Positions 5,757-29,875 of a DNA stretch of 30,437 bases are shown piece after piece. The position numbers and the translations under genes are program-made. Each line of letters opens with the position of its first letter. Position 1 is the first letter of the stretch. The stretch comes from Candidatus Binataceae bacterium (lineage in GTDB: Bacteria; Desulfobacterota; Binatia; Binatales; Binataceae): positions 1 through 30,437 of the forward strand of contig DASPQS010000173.1 of the NCBI GenBank assembly GCA_035624865.1. Direction: 5' to 3'. The notes beneath the pieces are model-generated. The model was not told where the DNA came from, ran no database searches, and saw only the letters and a list, made by a program, of their open reading frames with translations.

Positions 5757-7535
5757 TCAGCCGCCGTACATCGCCTCGATTTGCGCGCGGTAATGCTCCT
5801 GAACGACCTTGCGGCGCAGCTTAAGGGTCGGCGTCAGTTCGCCGTTATCTTGCGAAAACGGGCGGGCGGTCAGCGTAAAGTCGACGATCGCCTCGACGTC
5901 CGAGAGCGGCCGGTTGAATTCGCGAATCCGCGCGTGAAAGAATTCGCGCACTTTTGCCTCGTTCACCAGTTGTTCAGGGTCCTTGCCCTCGAGTTGAAGT
6001 CCCTTCAGTTGCGCGGCGAGGCTCTCAAAGTCCGGCACCAGGATCGCCGCCAGATGCTTGCGGCGGTCGCCGACGACACAGGCCTGCGCGATATATGGGT
6101 CGCTCGCCAGCCGGGTCTCCAGATTTGCCGGCGAGATATTTTTACCTCCCGAGAGGACAATGATTTCCTTCTTGCGGTCGGTGATACGGATGAAACCCTC
6201 GCCGTCGATTTGTGCCACATCACCAGTGTGAAGCCAGCCCGCGCTGTCGATCGCTTCGCGGCTTTCGGCTTCGCGCCCGTAATAACCTCTCATCACGTTG
6301 GCCCCGCGCACCAACAGTTCACCGTCCGCCGCGGTTTTCACTTCGATATCCTTGAGGGGACGGCCGACGGTGCCGATCCGGGTCTGCCCATGCAAGTTGC
6401 ACGAGACCACCGGTGCTGCCTCGGTCAGTCCGTAGCCCTCTACGATTGGAACTTCGGCAGCGGCCAGGAAACGGTTGATCTCGACCGGCAAAGGCGCGCC
6501 CCCCGAAATCAGATAGCGCAGGCGCCGGCCGAAAATTGCCCGTATTTTGTCGAAGACCAGCCGGCGGAAGACCGGCATCGCGGCGCGCAGGTGCGGCGGC
6601 AGAGCACGCCCGTGGTGACGATACTCGGTGGCTCGGGCGCCGATCGCGATCGCGGCGCGGAAAATTTTCTGCCGCAACACGGGCGAGGCCTCGACTGTCC
6701 GCATAACGCGGCTGTATATGACCTCGAGTAACCGCGGTACCGTCAGCACTACCGTGGGCTCGACTTCGAGGAGATTCTGCGCGATCTGACCCAGTCCTTC
6801 CGCGTAGTTGATCGTGCCGCCGGCCGCCATCACCGTGTAATAGCCTGCGGTGCGCTCGAACGAGTGAGCTACCGGAAGGAAAGAAAGCGTACTATCCGTC
6901 TCGTCGAGCCCCAGCGCAGCGAGATTCGAAGCGCAATTGGCCAGGATGTTCCGGTGCGATAGCATCGCCCCTTTCGGCGGTCCGGTGGTGCCCGAGGTAT
7001 AGATAAAGGTTGCAAGGTCGTCACCGCTGCCTTCGATCGCAGAGACAGGGTCAAAATTGCTCGCGTGCTCCAATGTGATTATCCTGGCCCCGTTGCTCTC
7101 GCCCGGCACAGCTCCCGGATGCAGTGTTATGATGCCTTCGACGTCCGGCAAAGCCGACGCGATTTGCCCCACTTTTCGAACCAGATGGTCCCCGCTTACC
7201 GCGATCAGGCGGGCCCCTGAATCCGCGATAACGTGCCGGGTCTCCTCTACCCCGCTCGTGGTGTAAAGCGGTACGACTACGGCTCCGGCGCCGAGCACGG
7301 CCTGGTCGACCACCACCCATTGCGGCGAGTTCTCCGAAAGGATGGCGACACGGTCGCCCGGTTGGAGGCCCAGCCGGATCAGGCCGCCGCGCAAACGCAT
7401 CGCCCGCTGGGCTATATCGCTCCACGAATGGTCGCGCCAGGAGCTTTCATAACGATCGCGCAGGAACGCTCGCCCGCTGTACTTCCGCGCCAGCCGTTCA
7501 AAAATTTGGGCCAAGCTCGCCGCTGCGCTCGCCAT
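5757..7535 (-). CDS. Long-chain fatty-acid--CoA ligase (AMP-dependent synthetase)
   Basis: YTSGTTGPPKG AMP-binding motif, FLPVAHSFER, SGGAPL, EGYGLTE, WLHTGD, DRKKEII, LTPTLKLRR. GGGAGGG ribosome-binding site. Confidence 0.95.
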   Translation of the reverse strand: MASAAASLAQIFERLARKYSGRAFLRDRYESSWRDHSWSDIAQRAMRLRGGLIRLGLQPGDRVAILSENSPQWVVVDQAVLGAGAVVVPLYTTSGVEETRHVIADSGARLIAVSGDHLVRKVGQIASALPDVEGIITLHPGAVPGESNGARIITLEHASNFDPVSAIEGSGDDLATFIYTSGTTGPPKGAMLSHRNILANCASNLAALGLDETDSTLSFLPVAHSFERTAGYYTVMAAGGTINYAEGLGQIAQNLLEVEPTVVLTVPRLLEVIYSRVMRTVEASPVLRQKIFRAAIAIGARATEYRHHGRALPPHLRAAMPVFRRLVFDKIRAIFGRRLRYLISGGAPLPVEINRFLAAAEVPIVEGYGLTEAAPVVSCNLHGQTRIGTVGRPLKDIEVKTAADGELLVRGANVMRGYYGREAESREAIDSAGWLHTGDVAQIDGEGFIRITDRKKEIIVLSGGKNISPANLETRLASDPYIAQACVVGDRRKHLAAILVPDFESLAAQLKGLQLEGKDPEQLVNEAKVREFFHARIREFNRPLSDVEAIVDFTLTARPFSQDNGELTPTLKLRRKVVQEHYRAQIEAMYGG

Positions 7536-7749
7536 TCAATCCCTCCCGCCGCTCAAGCATTGCGCCTCGATTTGTAGTCAAAACGCGAGCCAACTGCTAT
7601 CGCTCTGGCCGAGCCGGGCCGATCCGTCTCAGCTTCTTGCGGCGTCAAACCGCGGCGGGCTGGGCCTCAAAATAGGCGTTCCATTGCAGGTCAGCTATCT
7701 ATTACTATTACCGCCTGTGACTGTCCGACGTGAGCAAGGAACCCAAGAG

Positions 7750-9000
7750 ATGACTCTTGAACAAATCGACCTGATCGACCTCGACTTCTTCGTTCGTGGC
7801 GATATGTACGAAGCGTTTAAGCTGCTGCGGGAGCGGGACCCGGTTCACTGGCAGCAGCGTCAGCCTGGCCGCAGCTTCTGGTCACTTACCCGCTATGAGG
7901 ACGTGCTCGCGGTCTATCGCGACGCCAACAACTTCAGTTCCGTACTGGGCGTCACTCTATACTTCGGCAAACCCGAACCTGACCGGTCAGGTTTGGGCCG
8001 GATGATGATCATGACCGATCCACCGCGGCATGCGAAAGTACGCCAGGTGGTGAGCCGCCGTTTTACCCCGAGGGCCGTGGCGCTGTACGAGAGCCGGATC
8101 CGCCAGATCGCCTCCGAGATCGTCGACTCGATTATCGAGCGCGGTGAATGTGACTTCGTGGTTGATGTGGCGGCCAAATTGCCGACCGCCGCAATCTGCG
8201 AGTTGATGGGGATTCAGCGCGAGCACTGGGATCTGATGTTTACCATTGCGAATCAGTCCGTCGGCCGCCACGACGAAGAGTATTCGATGGGACGGACCGG
8301 GCGCGACACCATGTATGACGCCCAGGCGCAGGCCGCTGAGTTCTTCATCAAGGAAGCGGAAAAACGCAGGCGCAAGCCGACCGATGACCTGATTAGCGCT
8401 ATCGTTCACGGCTCAGTGATGGGCGAAGCGCTCGCGCCCCCGGATATAGTGGCGAACTGCTGGATGCTTATCCTCGGCGGCCAGGAGACCACCCGCAATG
8501 CGATTTCCGGTGCGATGCTGGCCCTGGTGCAAAACCCCGATGAGCGCGAAAAGTTCTATGCGGATCCGGATCCGGCGGCGCCTCTCGCTATCGAGGAATT
8601 CTTGCGCTGGACCTCGCCGGTCACTCATATCATGCGTACTGCTATGAGCGACATGACCATCCGTGGCGAGAAAATCCGTGCGGGCGACCGCGTGGTGCTG
8701 TGGAACGCCTCGGCGAACCGGGATGAAGCACAGTTTCCGGACCCCGACCGTTTCGATGTGCAACGGAGCCCAAACGAACATCTGGCCTTCGGTTACGGCG
8801 AGCACTTTTGCCTCGGCGCGAATCTCGCCCGCCTCGAGATGCGGGTGATGTTTGAAGAATTGGCGCGACGAATTCCCGACATCGAAATTGCTGGACCGGT
8901 CGAGCGTCTTCGCTCCAATTTTGTTGCCGGGATCAAGCATATGCCGGTGAGATTCACGCCCCATGCCGTGGAACGCGCGAAGCCCGTATCCGCCGCATAA
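7750..9000 (+). CDS. Cytochrome P450 (resembles CYP125/CYP142-like lipid or steroid oxidases)
   Basis: FWSLTRYEDV, DPPRHAKVR, GGQETT, EEFLR, PDRFD, FGYGEHFCLG. ATG 7750 is preferred over the TTG at 7684. Confidence 0.93.
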   Translation: MTLEQIDLIDLDFFVRGDMYEAFKLLRERDPVHWQQRQPGRSFWSLTRYEDVLAVYRDANNFSSVLGVTLYFGKPEPDRSGLGRMMIMTDPPRHAKVRQVVSRRFTPRAVALYESRIRQIASEIVDSIIERGECDFVVDVAAKLPTAAICELMGIQREHWDLMFTIANQSVGRHDEEYSMGRTGRDTMYDAQAQAAEFFIKEAEKRRRKPTDDLISAIVHGSVMGEALAPPDIVANCWMLILGGQETTRNAISGAMLALVQNPDEREKFYADPDPAAPLAIEEFLRWTSPVTHIMRTAMSDMTIRGEKIRAGDRVVLWNASANRDEAQFPDPDRFDVQRSPNEHLAFGYGEHFCLGANLARLEMRVMFEELARRIPDIEIAGPVERLRSNFVAGIKHMPVRFTPHAVERAKPVSAA

Positions 9001-9171
9001 GCCAGCGACGCGCCGTTAATTTAAAGGATTACTTGAGCCTTCAGCGGTTGGCTCATTGCCATCGCGAATGCTACTCTCGCTTCAGTTCTGCTTCTTTATC
9101 GTGCATCGGATGATTCGCCGGGCTAATAGCTGCGTGACTTGTCCGCATCGTCAGATGTCTTCGGTTGGCCT

Positions 9172-10179
9172 ATGACGATGAGGAACGCTTCCGTTCAGAT
9201 TCACGCTAATTTGCCGTCCTCGCCAGGACTGCATCGGTTCGCGATCGTGTGCGTGACTGCGACCTTTGTCCTGATTTTCGTCGGCGGTCTTGTTACCTCG
9301 ACCGGTTCGGCGCTCGCGGTGCCGGATTGGCCGCTTGCCTTCGGTCACTTGGTACCGAAATTAGTCGGTGGCGTGCGCTTTGAGTACGGTCATCGCGTGG
9401 TGGCGGGCGTGGTCGTCATATTGACCGCAGTTCTGGCGGCGTGGACGTGGCATGCGGAACCGCGCCGATGGGTTCGCAAAACGGCTCTTGCGGCCCTGGG
9501 CCTGATTGTCGCGCAGGCGATTCTGGGGGGCATCACGGTTTTGTTGCTTTTGCCGCTTGCGGTGGCGGTGGCGCACGCGGCCACCGCGCAGGCGTTCTTT
9601 TGCCTGATCGTTGCGATCGCGGTGTTCACGAATCCGCGTTTCGGCGAAGTTTCAGGAGAGCAGCCTGAGGCCCAAAAGTTACCCGTGGCGAGGCTGGCCG
9701 TGGTAACCACCGCCGTGATCTATGCCCAAATCCTGATCGGCGCTCTAATGCGCCACTTGGGGGCCGGCCTCGCGATTCCCGACTTCCCGCTGTCCTTCGG
9801 CGGCGTGTTGCCGCCTTTCGACTCCGTTTATGTCGATGTGAACTTTGCTCATCGATGCGGCGCGCTGGTGGTTACCGCACTCGTAATATCCCTGGTTGCG
9901 CGCATCATTTTTCACCGGGAAGAAGCAGGTCTTCGCCGCCCCGCGATAGGGCTGATTATCTTGCTGATGCTCCAGATTACTTTGGGGGCACTCACTATCT
10001 GGAGCGGGCGCGCGGTAATCCCGACTACTGCGCACGTTGCGATCGGGGCGGCGCTGCTCGCCACTTGCGTGACGCTGGCGCTGCGTGCGTTCGCCCTTGA
10101 GCATTTGGCAGCGGCACCCCAAGCGGATAAAGTGCCCGGGAACCTCGAGGCAGTGATGGAACGTGGGGTGACCATTTGA
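9172..10179 (+). CDS. ctaA: Heme A synthase (COX15/CtaA family)
   Basis: Multiple transmembrane segments with EYGHR, AHA, NFAHR and TAHV histidine motifs; adjacent to ctaB. Start uncertain (9139, 9172 or 9178). Confidence 0.88.
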   Translation: MTMRNASVQIHANLPSSPGLHRFAIVCVTATFVLIFVGGLVTSTGSALAVPDWPLAFGHLVPKLVGGVRFEYGHRVVAGVVVILTAVLAAWTWHAEPRRWVRKTALAALGLIVAQAILGGITVLLLLPLAVAVAHAATAQAFFCLIVAIAVFTNPRFGEVSGEQPEAQKLPVARLAVVTTAVIYAQILIGALMRHLGAGLAIPDFPLSFGGVLPPFDSVYVDVNFAHRCGALVVTALVISLVARIIFHREEAGLRRPAIGLIILLMLQITLGALTIWSGRAVIPTTAHVAIGAALLATCVTLALRAFALEHLAAAPQADKVPGNLEAVMERGVTI

Positions 10180-17827: not shown

Positions 17828-17843
17828 TGTCGCCAAGGCGACA
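17828..17843. promoter_or_regulatory. CRP-family-type box 1 (TGTCG-N6-CGACA)
   Basis: TGTCGC-CAAG-GCGACA, perfect half-sites, immediately upstream of the regulator start. Confidence 0.7.
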
Positions 17844-17878: not shown

Positions 17879-17894
17879 TGTCGCACTCGCGACA
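17879..17894. promoter_or_regulatory. CRP-family-type box 2 (TGTCG-N6-CGACA)
   Basis: TGTCGC-ACTC-GCGACA, with the same half-sites as box 1, 51 bp away. Confidence 0.7.
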
Positions 17895-20321: not shown

Positions 20322-21140
20322 ATGGCGAGCTACGAAACGCTGATCTACGAAAAAGTCGAAGACAAGATCTTCCGGCTCACTCTCAACCGGCCCGAAAAGC
20401 TCAATGCGATGTCGCAGAAGCTGTTGAAGGAGCTCGACGGCGTCATGGAGGAGTTCGAAGGGGATCCCACCGCCAGCGTGCTCATCGTGCGAGGAGCAGG
20501 GCGCGCATTCTGTGCCGGCTACGACCTACAACCCACTCAGCAGCCGGGGTCGGGCTTTACCGTGCACAATGACCGCACCAACCTGCACAAGATGGTCGAC
20601 CGATGGCAGCGGCTGTGGGCTCTACCCAAGCCGATCATCGCCCAGGTCCACGGCTACTGCCTGGCGGGCGCCACCGAACTCGCAGGCCATTGCGATATCG
20701 TTTTCGCCAGCGAGGATGCCCAATTCGGCCATCCAGCCGGTCGCGCGCTGGGGATCCTGCCTACCCTGTCGATGTGGCCCATCCTCATCGGGCCGCGCAA
20801 GACCAAAGAATATTTTTTCACCGGCGACCTAATGAGCGCGAAGGAGGCAATCGAATGCCACCTGGTGAACCGGGTCTTCCCTAAGGATCAGCTGGAAGCG
20901 GAGACCCTGTCCTATGCTCGCCGGGTCGCGATGGTTCCGCTGGACCTGCTCGCTCTCCATAAGGCCTCCATCAATCGCTGGCTTGACGTGATGGGCTATC
21001 GGGCGCTTGAGCAATCCTCCGCCGACCTTGACTGCATTGCTCATCAGACGGAAACCGTTAAGAACTGGATGAAGGCCAGCCGTGAGAAGGGGCTTAAGGC
21101 CGCTCTGACGGAGCGGGATCGGCCTTTCGCCAGAAAATGA
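20322..21140 (+). CDS. Enoyl-CoA hydratase/isomerase (crotonase) family protein
   Basis: LNRPEKLNAMS, GAGRAFCAGYDL, KPIIAQVHGYCLAGATELAGHCD. GGAGG ribosome-binding site. Confidence 0.92.
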   Translation: MASYETLIYEKVEDKIFRLTLNRPEKLNAMSQKLLKELDGVMEEFEGDPTASVLIVRGAGRAFCAGYDLQPTQQPGSGFTVHNDRTNLHKMVDRWQRLWALPKPIIAQVHGYCLAGATELAGHCDIVFASEDAQFGHPAGRALGILPTLSMWPILIGPRKTKEYFFTGDLMSAKEAIECHLVNRVFPKDQLEAETLSYARRVAMVPLDLLALHKASINRWLDVMGYRALEQSSADLDCIAHQTETVKNWMKASREKGLKAALTERDRPFARK

Positions 21141-21328
21141 CTTGGAAGCTCCGCGAGCGTTGTTACGACGAAATTCTTGCGGACGGGTATTCATAATACA
21201 TGGCATGAATGCACAGTTAGTGGCGCTGTTTGTGTCATTTACGCTACAAGACGGAACTAATCTCATCGCAAACATAATCTAAAGATAAAAAAGCCCTTTT
21301 AGATGAGAATTAACTAATATGAGTGTTA

Positions 21329-21343
21329 TGGCACATCTGTTGC
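21329..21343 (+). promoter_or_regulatory. Sigma54 (-24/-12) promoter
   Basis: TGGCAC-ATCTG-TTGC matches the core consensus exactly and follows an AT-rich tract (11 G+C in 21271-21320). Predicted +1 near 21355. Confidence 0.75.
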
Positions 21344-21408
21344 GGTGCGAGACAGCGTGGTGAAGCGCGGGAGATGGGGATTCTTACAGGAGGAGACGCT
21401 TACACGCT

Positions 21409-21609
21409 ATGGAATCCATCCGCATCAACAAGGGCGTTTGCGAACCCGAAATCGATATGAGCCGGCCCGCAGTGACAGGATCACCGCGCAAGGTCTGGCG
21501 GCTGCTTAGTTCGCTCCTCGGTTCGTCCAACCGATTCCCATCGAGGATAGGGACGCCGCGGCGCTCGGTCGACCGCGAGCAGCAACAGTACGCTCCGATA
21601 TACGACTGA
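21409..21609 (+). CDS. Hypothetical 66-aa protein (could instead be part of an sRNA)
   Basis: Downstream of the sigma54 promoter. AGGAGGAG at 21388-21395, but with a long 13-nt spacing to the ATG. No family recognised. Confidence 0.35.
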   Translation: MESIRINKGVCEPEIDMSRPAVTGSPRKVWRLLSSLLGSSNRFPSRIGTPRRSVDREQQQYAPIYD

Positions 21610-21713
21610 GAAGAAACGAAGAACGAGGATAGGTCTTTGCCCGAGCGGGCTAAGGCGTATCTTCTATCCCCAGTCTCGTCCGGCGCGGCGGTCGAAAATG
21701 ATCGGCATGCTTG

Positions 21714-21743
21714 ATAGTCGCGCAAGGCATAGTCGCGCAAGGC
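21714..21743 (+). repeat. Perfect 15-bp tandem repeat, two copies
   Basis: ATAGTCGCGCAAGGC at 21714-21728 and 21729-21743, intergenic. Confidence 0.85.
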
Positions 21744-21979
21744 ATATCGGGTAGCCGCCTCCCATCGGGGCTAGCCAGTTCTCTCCCGCCTGGCAACATG
21801 CCTCGCAGCCACATTCCTCCGGATCGTAGGTAACTTACAGTCATTGCTACAAAGCGGGCGCCCGCATTTTGCCGATGCCCCTTCGAGTAGCGAAACTACA
21901 AGCTATCGGTCACTCTCACTCACTCGAATATGATGGCACTAATTTTGTTCCCCAAAGGCTCCCACGTGGGCAGCTTGCG

Positions 21980-23713
21980 ATGCAGCGGCAGCAATGGCGC
22001 GGGTGGACGGGGAACGTAGCGTCTCGATGGCGGTTCGTGCCTCGGTTCGCGCTCGTTACGGTGAGCGGGCTACTGACTCTTTTGCCCAGCGGACAGCCAA
22101 GAGCATACGAGATCGGTCCAACCCGGACAGAAGAACTGTTTGGGCCAGTACTCGCCTGGGAGAGTCGGCCAGGGTTTCGCCTTGATAACCTGTCCGGCGC
22201 GATGCGCAATCTGGCGGCGGCGGCCGAACGTGAAAATCAACCGAAGGCTGATTCCAGTACGGGGGATTCTTACCCGAGGGAACCAGAGTCGCCGTTGCCG
22301 CTCGGATTCGTGACCGCGGATAGTCTCACAATCTCGTCGGCGAACCTTAAGCTGAGTCGCTACACCGGGTTTACGCAGAGCGAGACTTCTGCCGCTTGGT
22401 GCGGCTCGAACATGCTGGTCGCCTTCAACGATACCGCGGCAGAAATAAGCACAATTGCCGCGGCCAGTGGAGTAAGCGCGATCGGATTTTCAGTGTCCTC
22501 CAATTTTGGGTCGAAGTTCACCTACACAGGCGCCCCCAAGACCGCGCCAAATCTCTCACAGATTCTCGCTGGAGATCCGGCGCTCGTATGCGCCGACTCG
22601 AAAACGTTCTACTACAGCGCGATCTGGATGGACGGAGTGGCGACGACAAATGGTGTGGCCATCAGCAAGTCGGTGGACGGTGGTATGACCTTCTCCGCAC
22701 CTGTCCCGGCGGTCACAAAGCTCAACTCTAGCCATATCATCAGCCGGGATTGGCTCGCGATCGATTCCGCAAACCCTGGCCATCTTTACATTGCTTACGT
22801 GGACTTCGATTTCTCTGCCACAGTCTGCGGAAGAGATCCTATCTCAAATCAACCGATTGCCCGCTATGCAGTGGAGATGGTGAACTCTGTAGATGGAGGC
22901 GCCGATTGGAGTTCCCCCACGGTCGTGGAGCAGGTGTGCGCGGACTCGACCAGCCCGAACGCGCGGGTTATGGCCCCACAGGCGGCCGTCGATGCTGAGG
23001 GAGCTGTGTACGTGGTCTGGGAGGCGATGGGCGAGAATGGTGGTCCCCTTACCGCGCGGCAAATCCGGATCGCGCGCTCGATCGACGGCGGCGGTTCGTT
23101 TTCCGCGCCCCTGCAGATCGCGGCGGTCACCTCAATCGGCAATGGCGCTGACTTGCAGGGGTTTATTCGGGGCTTCGAGTCTCCGAGTCTGACCATTGGC
23201 AAAGGCAAGAAAGACAAGGGATTCATCTATGTCGCTTGGAGCGACGCGAGCGCCAGTGCCGCGGATAAGCTTTCGACGACCGGGTTGTACGGCTTTTCCG
23301 ATATCAGGTTCGCGAGTTCGGCCGATCACGGCGCTACCTGGTCCACACCTGTGCGCGTCAACAACAACGTCGAAAGCGCAACTGCGCAATCCGATCAGTT
23401 CGAACCGGCCGTGGGCGCCGACAAAAATGGGGAAATCGTAGTCTGTTTCTATGATCGCCGAAGGGATTCGAACAACTTCCTGCTAGACCGCTATTGTGGG
23501 CTCTCGACTAACCGCGGCGTCTCCTGGAGCAACAGGAGGATTTCCTCCTCCAATTTCCCTCCGCTGGTTGGGCAGGATGCCCTGGTGGCGGCCGATTACA
23601 TGGGTGAGTACGACGTCGTTACTGGCGATGGGCTTGGCCAGCACGCCGGCCTGATTGCGCCCTACGCGAACAATGCGACAGGTCACCCTGTCGTAACGTT
23701 CAAAAAATTCTGA
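21980..23713 (+). CDS. Exported BNR/Asp-box beta-propeller protein (sialidase-like fold)
   Basis: Five Asp-boxes (SVDGGMTF, SVDGGADW, SIDGGGSF, SADHGATW, STNRGVSW) and an N-terminal hydrophobic segment after RWRFVPR. Start uncertain (21869 or 21980). Confidence 0.8.
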   Translation: MQRQQWRGWTGNVASRWRFVPRFALVTVSGLLTLLPSGQPRAYEIGPTRTEELFGPVLAWESRPGFRLDNLSGAMRNLAAAAERENQPKADSSTGDSYPREPESPLPLGFVTADSLTISSANLKLSRYTGFTQSETSAAWCGSNMLVAFNDTAAEISTIAAASGVSAIGFSVSSNFGSKFTYTGAPKTAPNLSQILAGDPALVCADSKTFYYSAIWMDGVATTNGVAISKSVDGGMTFSAPVPAVTKLNSSHIISRDWLAIDSANPGHLYIAYVDFDFSATVCGRDPISNQPIARYAVEMVNSVDGGADWSSPTVVEQVCADSTSPNARVMAPQAAVDAEGAVYVVWEAMGENGGPLTARQIRIARSIDGGGSFSAPLQIAAVTSIGNGADLQGFIRGFESPSLTIGKGKKDKGFIYVAWSDASASAADKLSTTGLYGFSDIRFASSADHGATWSTPVRVNNNVESATAQSDQFEPAVGADKNGEIVVCFYDRRRDSNNFLLDRYCGLSTNRGVSWSNRRISSSNFPPLVGQDALVAADYMGEYDVVTGDGLGQHAGLIAPYANNATGHPVVTFKKF

Positions 23714-24765: not shown

Positions 24766-24782
24766 CTGGCACGGCGGCTGCG
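24766..24782 (+). promoter_or_regulatory. Sigma54 (-24/-12) promoter of the cpaE-like gene
   Basis: CTGGCACGGCGGCTGCG versus consensus YTGGCACGRNNNTTGCW (two mismatches; GG/GC spacing exact). Predicted +1 near 24793, 25 nt before the ATG. Confidence 0.6.
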
Positions 24783-24817: not shown

Positions 24818-26023
24818 ATGTCATTGATGCGGCTATCACGCGAGCAGTGGCAAAAATTGCGGGTCGGGGTCGTCGGTGGAGACAAGAAGGGCCGGGCTGA
24901 GGTCACAAGCGTATTGGCCAACTTCGAGGGGCCAAAGCTAGAAATAGCTGAAATTGACATCCCTAGCGATAGCCGATCCCGCGCCGAGCCTGACCTCTCG
25001 ATTCTCCTGTTCGGCGCGAACCAAGCCGAGTCGATCCGTTATCTCGAGACTCAGGCGGGCCGCGCACATCGTCCGGTCCTGGTCGCGATCCTTCCCGGCC
25101 ATTCGCCGACGGCAATGCGGCGGGTATTGCACGCCGGTGCCGACGAGGTGTTACTTCACCCGCTGGACGCCGCCGACCTCAAACGCATCCTGATACGGCT
25201 CGCGGAGGAGCGCGGCCCACTCGAACAAGGCTTGATCTATTCGATTTCCAGCCTGTGCGGCGGCGTTGGCGTGACGACGCTAAGCGGCGGCCTTGCACTC
25301 GCTTTGCGCTACGCGTTCGACCAAAGCGTTGCGCTCGTTGACCTTGATCTCCAGAGCGGAGGACTCGATGCCTTCCTTCACGTCGAGCCTGATCGGACTA
25401 TACTTCCTTTAACTGTTTCGACCTCCACGCTTGACCCCTCGAGACTTGAAGCGGCGCTAACCAGGCATCCGTCGGGCGTGTACCTGCTGGCGGCGCCGCG
25501 CCGAATCGACGATTCCGAACGCGTGAGCGACCTCATTGTCGCCGCCGCGCTCGACCATCTGCGCCGCTCCTTCGACGCCGTCGTGGTGGATTGCGGGCGC
25601 CATGTCGACGCCAATGTGGTGGCGGCATGGGAAAGGTCCGAAGAGGTTCTCTACGTGCTCGAACCGTCCGCGGCAGCAGCGCGAAGCGCGGCGCGCTTTC
25701 GTGAGATGTTTGACCATTTGGGGCTTCACGGGATTCAGCCCACGATGGTGTTGAACAAGTTTCACACGCATGACGCGCTGGACCAAGCGCAAATTTCGGC
25801 TTTGGCCGGGGCAGGGCCCTTCGCCCTGATTCCTCGCGACGACCGCTTGCTCGAGCGGGCCGAACTCCAGGCGCAGGACCCATGGCAAGTCGCGCCGGAT
25901 TCGAAGTTCGTTCGCGCCATCGAGGATCTTGCCCGAGGCTTGATCCAACGACGGCCGCAGGCCGCCACTCGTGGCGGGAAAATCGTCGCCTGCCGTCCGA
26001 CCGCAATCGGCCCGCGCATCTGA
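24818..26023 (+). CDS. CpaE/TadZ-like protein: pseudo-receiver domain plus MinD/ParA-like ATPase fold
   Basis: PDLSILLF...AGADEVLLHP atypical receiver, degenerate Walker A CGGVGVTT, VDLDLQSG, YLLAAP, Walker B FDAVVVDCG, VLNK. Confidence 0.8.
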   Translation: MSLMRLSREQWQKLRVGVVGGDKKGRAEVTSVLANFEGPKLEIAEIDIPSDSRSRAEPDLSILLFGANQAESIRYLETQAGRAHRPVLVAILPGHSPTAMRRVLHAGADEVLLHPLDAADLKRILIRLAEERGPLEQGLIYSISSLCGGVGVTTLSGGLALALRYAFDQSVALVDLDLQSGGLDAFLHVEPDRTILPLTVSTSTLDPSRLEAALTRHPSGVYLLAAPRRIDDSERVSDLIVAAALDHLRRSFDAVVVDCGRHVDANVVAAWERSEEVLYVLEPSAAAARSAARFREMFDHLGLHGIQPTMVLNKFHTHDALDQAQISALAGAGPFALIPRDDRLLERAELQAQDPWQVAPDSKFVRAIEDLARGLIQRRPQAATRGGKIVACRPTAIGPRI

Positions 26024-29761: not shown

Positions 29762-29783
29762 GGCATTCCGCTGACGGAATGCC
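29762..29783. promoter_or_regulatory. Perfect 9-bp inverted repeat, candidate upstream activator sequence or operator
   Basis: GGCATTCCG-CTGA-CGGAATGCC in the divergent mlaE/activator intergenic region, centred about 113 bp upstream of the predicted sigma54 +1. Confidence 0.5.
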
Positions 29784-29859
29784 AATCGTTTGCCGTCGAT
29801 CCGCAACGCTAATCCACGAAATCGTCCAAGGTATTCTCAATCAAACTTCGAGTTCGTGA

Positions 29860-29875
29860 TGGCCTGCGACTTGCT
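29860..29875 (+). promoter_or_regulatory. Weaker sigma54 (-24/-12) promoter match upstream of the sigma54 activator gene
   Basis: TGGCCT-GCGAC-TTGCT: GG/GC spacing exact, CAC replaced by CCT. Predicted +1 near 29886. Confidence 0.45.

Follow-up and report, generated by a model that had tools for sequence, protein, structure and literature searches.

A probable stand-alone sigma-54-dependent small-protein gene in Candidatus Binataceae

Small products of sigma-54 promoters and the Binataceae locus

Sigma-54-dependent transcription is known to deliver small products of several kinds. In the PspA/PspF and HrpV/HrpS systems, a protein made under sigma-54 control feeds back on a 'headless' activator. 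CrcZ is a sigma-54-dependent small RNA, and the sponge RNAs RsmY/Z and CsrB carry repeated GGA motifs. The nif clusters controlled by NifA and sigma-54 encode NifT/FixU, a protein of about 70 residues whose role is obscure. Further, SutA of Pseudomonas aeruginosa is a small intrinsically disordered regulator of RNA polymerase (bioRxiv 10.1101/423384).

The window considered here is a stretch of 30,437 nucleotides from a Candidatus Binataceae bacterium (contig DASPQS010000173.1, positions 1 to 30,437). Within it, a gap of about 840 bp separates the stop codon of an enoyl-CoA hydratase gene (20322-21140; Pfam ECH_1) from the start codon, ATG 21980, of a gene for a 577-residue Asp-box/BNR protein (21980-23713, plus strand; Pfam BNR_2, 2.6e-9). 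Comparison across genomes leads us to regard this region, with good confidence, as a stand-alone, sigma-54-dependent gene for a small protein of 66 residues. A small protein under sigma-54 control is a known kind of thing, and it is the family itself that is new.

How far the known systems serve as guides differs from case to case. As in PspA/PspF and HrpV/HrpS, the small gene appears to be sigma-54-driven and its conserved neighbourhood also encodes a headless AAA+ activator; like PspA and HrpV, the small protein would be non-enzymatic and would probably act by partner binding. Unlike them, it shares no sequence similarity with PspA/IM30 or HrpV, is far smaller and probably mostly disordered, and its gene is only loosely linked to that of the activator (at 8-10 kb, seen in 4 of the roughly 10 extended loci). 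With SutA it has in common, by analogy only, its small size, restriction to one lineage, predicted disorder, a short helix and a presumed docking on a large partner, whereas the two proteins are non-homologous and their promoters are of different types. The resemblance to CrcZ lies in a sigma-54 promoter placed before a short transcript in a large intergenic gap; unlike CrcZ, RsmY/Z and CsrB, this transcript encodes a conserved protein and shows no GGA excess, CsrA partner, credible Rfam match or conserved RNA structure. Finally, NifT/FixU is likewise a small protein of a sigma-54 regulon, and the palindrome upstream of the Binataceae gene has TGT...ACA ends as in the NifA site, although the spacing is TGT-N12-ACA here against TGT-N10-ACA there, the protein has no match to Pfam NifT and there is no nif context.

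A seemingly empty intergenic gap would in this way acquire a defined gene and a defined control element. The gene belongs to a protein family that nearly all members of a single bacterial family, uncultured and of global distribution, possess, and that was found in none of the sampled genomes beyond it. Given the uncultured host, the immediate impact is modest. Nevertheless, the sigma-54-driven form, tied as it is to a conserved neighbour with a sigma-54-type site of its own, should offer a compact and testable entry into the sigma-54 signalling of the Binatota.

The small gene, its promoter and the elements upstream

The AT-rich tract, the perfect TGGCAC-N5-TTGC and the 66-residue open reading frame that a sequence-only reading of the gap had picked out are all present. 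The reading frame (21409-21609, plus strand) begins with ATG and bears the marks of a translated sequence. When it is compared with three genomes of the same genus, the differences at codon positions 1, 2 and 3 number 3, 2 and 20 for the nearest, and 9, 9 and 31 and 13, 10 and 31 for the other two. The columns of the ATG and of the stop (TGA, TAA or TAG) are kept in the alignment, indels are in frame, including a 6-nt insertion in one genome, and sequence identity drops off directly 3' of the stop. The codon-periodic substitutions and in-frame indels, together with the existence of a Binataceae family of homologs, mark the reading frame as a protein-coding gene under purifying selection. The only DNA of the gap conserved in all three of the other genus genomes extends from the promoter through the stop codon (query 184-474).

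The promoter, which we call P1 (TGGCAC-N5-TTGC, 21329-21343, plus strand), has the exact sigma-54 consensus and is the sole exact match in the window. Its GG and GC are exactly 10 nt apart, it faces the small gene from 66 nt before the ATG, and the start site is predicted near 21355. The -24/-12 element is invariant in the alignment with the three same-genus genomes. Among 29 published loci of the family, a -24/-12 site, called at 8 or more of the 10 specified bases with the GG and GC kept, is found 36-102 nt 5' of the gene in 21, against an expectation of 0.054 per 250 nt taken from the remainder of the same loci. The position of such an element is thus preserved across many genera, in no fewer than 21 loci, although the flanking sequence diverges. 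In the genome as a whole (a 2.5-Mb assembly in 314 contigs, 86% complete), 11 sites of the form TGGCA[CT]-N5-TTGC occur and about 9 are expected; since this count is not beyond chance, the motif by itself is weak evidence, and it is conservation and position in relatives, not the match alone, that argue for P1 being real.

The machinery that such a promoter would need is encoded in the same genome. The rpoN gene, whose presence the sequence-only reading had left to be looked up, is found on contig C79 (2.3e-62). With nine strong matches to PF00158, the genome also has at least nine sigma-54 activator genes, of which one sits at the window's 3' end.

Several elements lie upstream of P1. The best candidate for its activator-binding site (UAS) is an 18-bp imperfect palindrome of the form TGTNNCA-N4-TGNNACA (21231-21248, plus strand), centred at about -115 from the predicted start site, which matches 9 of the 10 specified bases and is the only such site in the window. 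A palindrome of this type with at least 8 of 10 bases recurs in several genera (9 of 20 loci), invariably 80-99 nt 5' of the -24 element, compared with 1.9% of control 200-nt windows, a statistic that is partly circular because the motif was derived from the same loci. Within the genome, this palindrome is the only one at activator distance from a sigma-54 site of consensus grade (10/10). Other pairings of palindrome and sigma-54 site, on contigs C123 and C170, involve weaker sites (8-9/10) that are about 50 nt away or overlap the palindrome. The C123 copy (C123:2035-2052) is a perfect TGTAGCA-N4-TGCAACA with its weak sigma-54-like site about 50 nt off, on the minus strand, and is the assembly's only other candidate site for the same regulator.

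The PHA locus in the window carries palindromes of a different kind, namely perfect TGTCGC-N4-GCGACA boxes at 17828-17843 and 17879-17894, between the gene of a CRP-family regulator and phaE. The palindrome before P1 differs in spacing from these CRP-type boxes and shows 3 mismatches to them whichever spacing is used, a level of agreement that chance alone would give. In a single other genus, half-sites of the CRP-type box and of the small-gene palindrome do look alike, but with 2 bp more spacing.

Further upstream, at about -140 to -155 from the predicted start site, a block GGCAT..ATGCAC (21201-21215, plus strand) is largely invariant in four same-genus genomes, within which it was traced, and is possibly a regulator site as well. 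Between the palindrome and P1 lies the AT-rich tract (21256-21328, plus strand), with a GC content of 0.31 at 21240-21319 against about 0.6 around it; no match to the IHF consensus was found in this tract, which is likely a bendable spacer. Downstream of P1, the predicted leader of about 54 nt contains a Shine-Dalgarno-like sequence, AGGAGGAG (21388-21395, plus strand), so read from its letters and conserved in the genus, at 13-15 nt from the ATG, a distance longer than optimal.

The mechanism that we favour can be put together from these parts. Sigma-54 RNA polymerase would bind TGGCAC-N5-TTGC at 21329-21343 and would be remodelled, across the AT-rich spacer, by an AAA+ activator bound upstream, for which the palindrome at 21231-21248 is the best candidate site. 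Transcription would begin near 21355 and produce a short mRNA composed of the leader with its strong Shine-Dalgarno sequence, the reading frame at 21409-21609 and a stem-loop at 21625-21664, from which the 66-residue protein would be made. This protein would most likely be a small adaptor or regulator that docks on a partner, and not an enzyme, because it appears mostly disordered, has one amphipathic helix and carries two very conserved short motifs at its ends. The Asp-box gene, for its part, would have its own sigma-54-type promoter and its own upstream palindrome; together, the small gene and the Asp-box gene would make up a conserved pair of sigma-54 outputs next to the PHA/enoyl-CoA hydratase locus.

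The Asp-box gene and the wider neighbourhood

The order of enoyl-CoA hydratase gene, small gene and Asp-box gene is kept in 13-15 loci across genera, and an Asp-box homolog follows the small gene on the same strand in 15 loci. In the window, the Asp-box protein starts at ATG 21980 and not in a longer TTG frame, since the nearest relative (G002) differs by a 1-nt indel 5' of this ATG, which breaks the longer frame, and by a 3-nt indel 3' of it. Its N-terminus has a hydrophobic segment, as judged by eye.

Two elements of the spacer bear on where the small transcript ends. A GC-rich stem-loop of 40 nt without a U tail (21625-21664, plus strand) begins 16 nt past the stop codon; it has a predicted energy of -24.4 kcal/mol (z = -4.5), and none of 200 shuffles is as stable. 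The counterpart in G002 is a hairpin of 42 nt with a changed stem sequence, and no consensus structure is found across the four genus genomes. This hairpin probably marks the 3' end of the small mRNA or serves its termination or stability; as it has no U tail and is not conserved as a genus-wide structure, read-through into the Asp-box gene is possible. The second element is the weak terminator earlier proposed at 21851-21870, which fared poorly: as RNA it folds at -6.7 kcal/mol (z = +0.62), and a scan of the region for intrinsic terminators found none. It is contained in a DNA palindrome (21842-21877, assigned to neither strand) with an A-rich arm, a GGCGCC core and a TTTTGCC arm. Of 14 loci, 11 have the core followed by a T run at 77-83 or 133-151 nt 5' of the second sigma-54-type site described below, compared with 2.7% of control windows. 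In three other loci, the DNA palindrome is kept in all orthologous elements checked, and these fold no better than shuffles, except in G001 (-19 kcal/mol, z -2.9). The palindrome is hence better read as a putative protein-binding site upstream of that second promoter.

This second site, P2 (TGGCAC-N5-TTGT, 21934-21948, plus strand), lies 32 nt before the Asp-box ATG. It has T in place of the -12 C and is invariant in G002. A single copy of TGGCA[CT]-N5-TTG is present in the spacer in 14 of the 15 loci, against none in about 100 kb of control sequence, and in many loci the -12 C of the P2-type site is replaced by T, G or A.

These observations frame an alternative that we consider unlikely: the small gene and the Asp-box gene could form one sigma-54 operon, with transcription from P1 reading through the tail-less hairpin, P2 acting as an internal or auxiliary promoter, and the small reading frame serving as an upstream cistron or as part of a long leader. 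The adjacency of the two genes on the same strand in 15 loci across genera would fit such an operon, as would the failure of the scan to find a canonical intrinsic terminator and the lack of a U run after the hairpin. However, the two genes are separated by a poorly conserved spacer of 250-600 nt, a -24/-12-type site belonging to the Asp-box gene itself is present in all but one of the 15 loci, that gene also has an upstream palindrome to itself, and some sigma-54-driven members of the family have no downstream Asp-box gene. The sequence-only reading had named as its own refutation a transcript that is simply a long leader of the Asp-box gene. This did not hold, as the reading frame is a conserved gene and a conserved sigma-54-type site stands directly before the Asp-box gene.

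In the same spacer, a perfect tandem duplication of a 15-nt unit is seen at 21714-21743, and it appears to be recent, because the nearest relative carries only one diverged copy.

Beyond the spacer, the conserved trio of genes often has phaC and a phasin-like gene on its 5' side. A CpaE-like gene is often next on the 3' side, and orthologs of the headless activator follow 8-10 kb downstream in four other loci out of about 10 extended ones. The activator at the window's end has only about 50 residues before its AAA+ core, and its orthologs are 405-410 residues long. It is tempting to view the 66-residue protein as an anti-activator or co-activator of this headless activator about 8 kb downstream, closing a feedback loop; a sigma-70-driven paralog would then provide the basal amount, and the Asp-box gene would be an output regulated alongside. 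If true, this would constitute a new, Binataceae-specific class of small protein regulators of bacterial enhancer-binding proteins, unrelated to PspA and HrpV and much smaller than either. We nonetheless find the proposal quite doubtful and give it low weight, because its basis is loose linkage and analogy.

A few other features of this neighbourhood may be recorded. Sites resembling the -24/-12 element occur at 24767-24781, before the CpaE-like gene, and at 29860-29874, before the gene for the headless activator, with a perfect 9+9 palindrome (29764-29785) some 85 nt ahead of the latter. In a locus of another genus (L064, G281:C4), the Asp-box gene and the headless activator are separated (7448-9914) by two TadB/TadC-like (T2SSF) genes, a TPR gene and an IS (rve) element. 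Given these TadB/TadC-like genes, the orphan CpaE-like gene of the window (24818-26023) may be the remnant of a Tad pilus cluster.

The protein family, its paralogs and the remaining readings

The alignment of the family shows an N-terminal EPE-x-DM-x-R, a variable basic linker, an amphipathic helix and a C-terminal PRRS-[VI]-DRE-x-Q. The C-terminal motif is very conserved, and the last residue of the family is usually acidic. A word-indexed search returned ten homologs, unnamed or called 'hypothetical protein'. The earlier description of the reading frame as unannotated was thus half right: it has no name, but some public gene calls do list its homologs as hypothetical proteins. Gene callers treat this small gene inconsistently, and annotators stand to gain from its definition. 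A profile search of 1.8 billion representatives gave about 61 clusters (at 50% identity), nearly all of 60-75 residues. The longer gene calls that were examined are explained by over-extended starts and, in one case, by a partial tandem duplication, and fused or longer forms of the family were accordingly rejected.

The family is present in 76 of 81 Binataceae genomes and in 29 of 30 genera, with 1-5 copies each. This tally includes five unpublished genomes (G019, G254, G256, G270 and G282) and stands at 71 of 76 without them; none of the locus-level analyses drew on these five. Across the rest of the phylum, the family was not found in about 199 sampled genomes of other families, and the only match among the roughly 200 phylum genomes sampled besides the window's own was in the single Binataceae genome among them. 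The window's protein has no match in Pfam, NCBIfam or the PDB, and 35 members of the family gave only scattered single-member matches in Pfam and NCBIfam, with E values of 0.008 or worse. The closest clusters in the ESM Atlas are unnamed, and we found no mention of the protein in the literature. Judged by these searches, the family is previously undescribed and, among the genomes sampled, specific to the Binataceae. An AlphaFold model built with the family alignment is of low confidence (pLDDT 64) and shows a single helix at residues 27-38, on which grounds the protein is probably disordered for the most part when on its own.

Paralogs add a further layer to the family. The 8 of 29 loci without a -24/-12 site constitute a second class, class B, whose C-terminal motif ends in W-P-S and whose loci show sigma-70-like -35/-10 pairs. 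Class B is present in other genera too, and the split of promoter types between the classes indicates that the family has a sigma-54-driven form and a sigma-70-type form. The window's own genome carries a diverged class B copy (L021, C258:1444-1617), with a sigma-70-like TTGATT-16-TATAGT on its 5' side and a RidA/L-PSP gene on its 3' side. The neighbours of the other paralogs are unrelated to one another (metallo-beta-lactamase, RidA, thiolase and CMD genes), and genomic neighbourhood alone therefore names no partner.

It could be asked whether so small a protein is instead the precursor of a modified or exported peptide, whether RiPP-like, PqqA-like or a Pup-like tag. Methylotrophy goes with the use of PQQ. 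The small size, the very conserved C-terminal segment with its E-x3-Y spacing and the frequent acidic last residue could be taken in favour of a precursor, and the reported methylotrophy of the Binatota (PMC8262859) would fit PQQ use. We nevertheless consider a precursor very unlikely, as neither Pfam nor NCBIfam links the protein to the PqqA, Pup or RiPP leader families, the conserved neighbours include no maturation enzyme, ligase or transporter, and the protein has neither a Cys pattern nor a signal peptide. The PqqA-like reading of E-x3-Y in particular was rejected, since the Tyr is not kept in class B, where Trp or other residues replace it.

A probable regulator or adaptor made from P1 is the reading we retain. 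That P1 is a fortuitous match, with the small gene transcribed from another, sigma-70 promoter, might be argued from the chance-level frequency of the motif genome-wide and from the sigma-70-like promoters of class B; however, no sigma-70-like site is found in 20900-22200, and the conserved placement of the -24/-12 element at a fixed distance, across genera and amid diverging flanks, makes this highly improbable.

The transcript had also been read as a possible RNA output, and this part of the proposal did not survive. The 10 GGA motifs in 21355-21870, a stretch that had been read as GGA-rich, equal the level in dinucleotide shuffles (9.6 +/- 2.2), as do the 2 A-N-GGA motifs (1.9). A search for CsrA (PF02599) found none in 61 Binataceae genomes, the window's own and 60 more; 57 of these 61 are of high quality, and the tally is 0 of 57 once the four unpublished genomes that it includes are left out. 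The RNA fold shows no excess structure (z = -0.74), the leader and the 3' region yield no consensus RNA structure (-2.5 and -1.05 kcal/mol), and the Rfam search gave nothing credible, its sole match, to a Burkholderia sRNA, being sub-threshold (E 0.15), on the opposite strand and beyond the limits of the transcript. A non-coding Csr/Rsm sponge or CrcZ-like sRNA with a fortuitous reading frame, for which several GGA motifs, AGGAGGAG among them, 3' of a sigma-54 promoter could be cited, is thus almost certainly the wrong reading, the more so as the substitutions follow a codon-like pattern. What stands of the 'dedicated sigma-54 output, peptide or RNA' is the peptide, with P1 kept across genera, rpoN present and the reading frame under purifying selection.

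Lastly, 6 of the 11 TGGCA[CT]-N5-TTGC sites of the genome (on contigs C185, C188, C231, C260, C275 and C283) have the extended form TGGCATCGC-N2-TTGC. The same form also precedes the Asp-box gene in relatives, and it may represent a local sigma-54 consensus.
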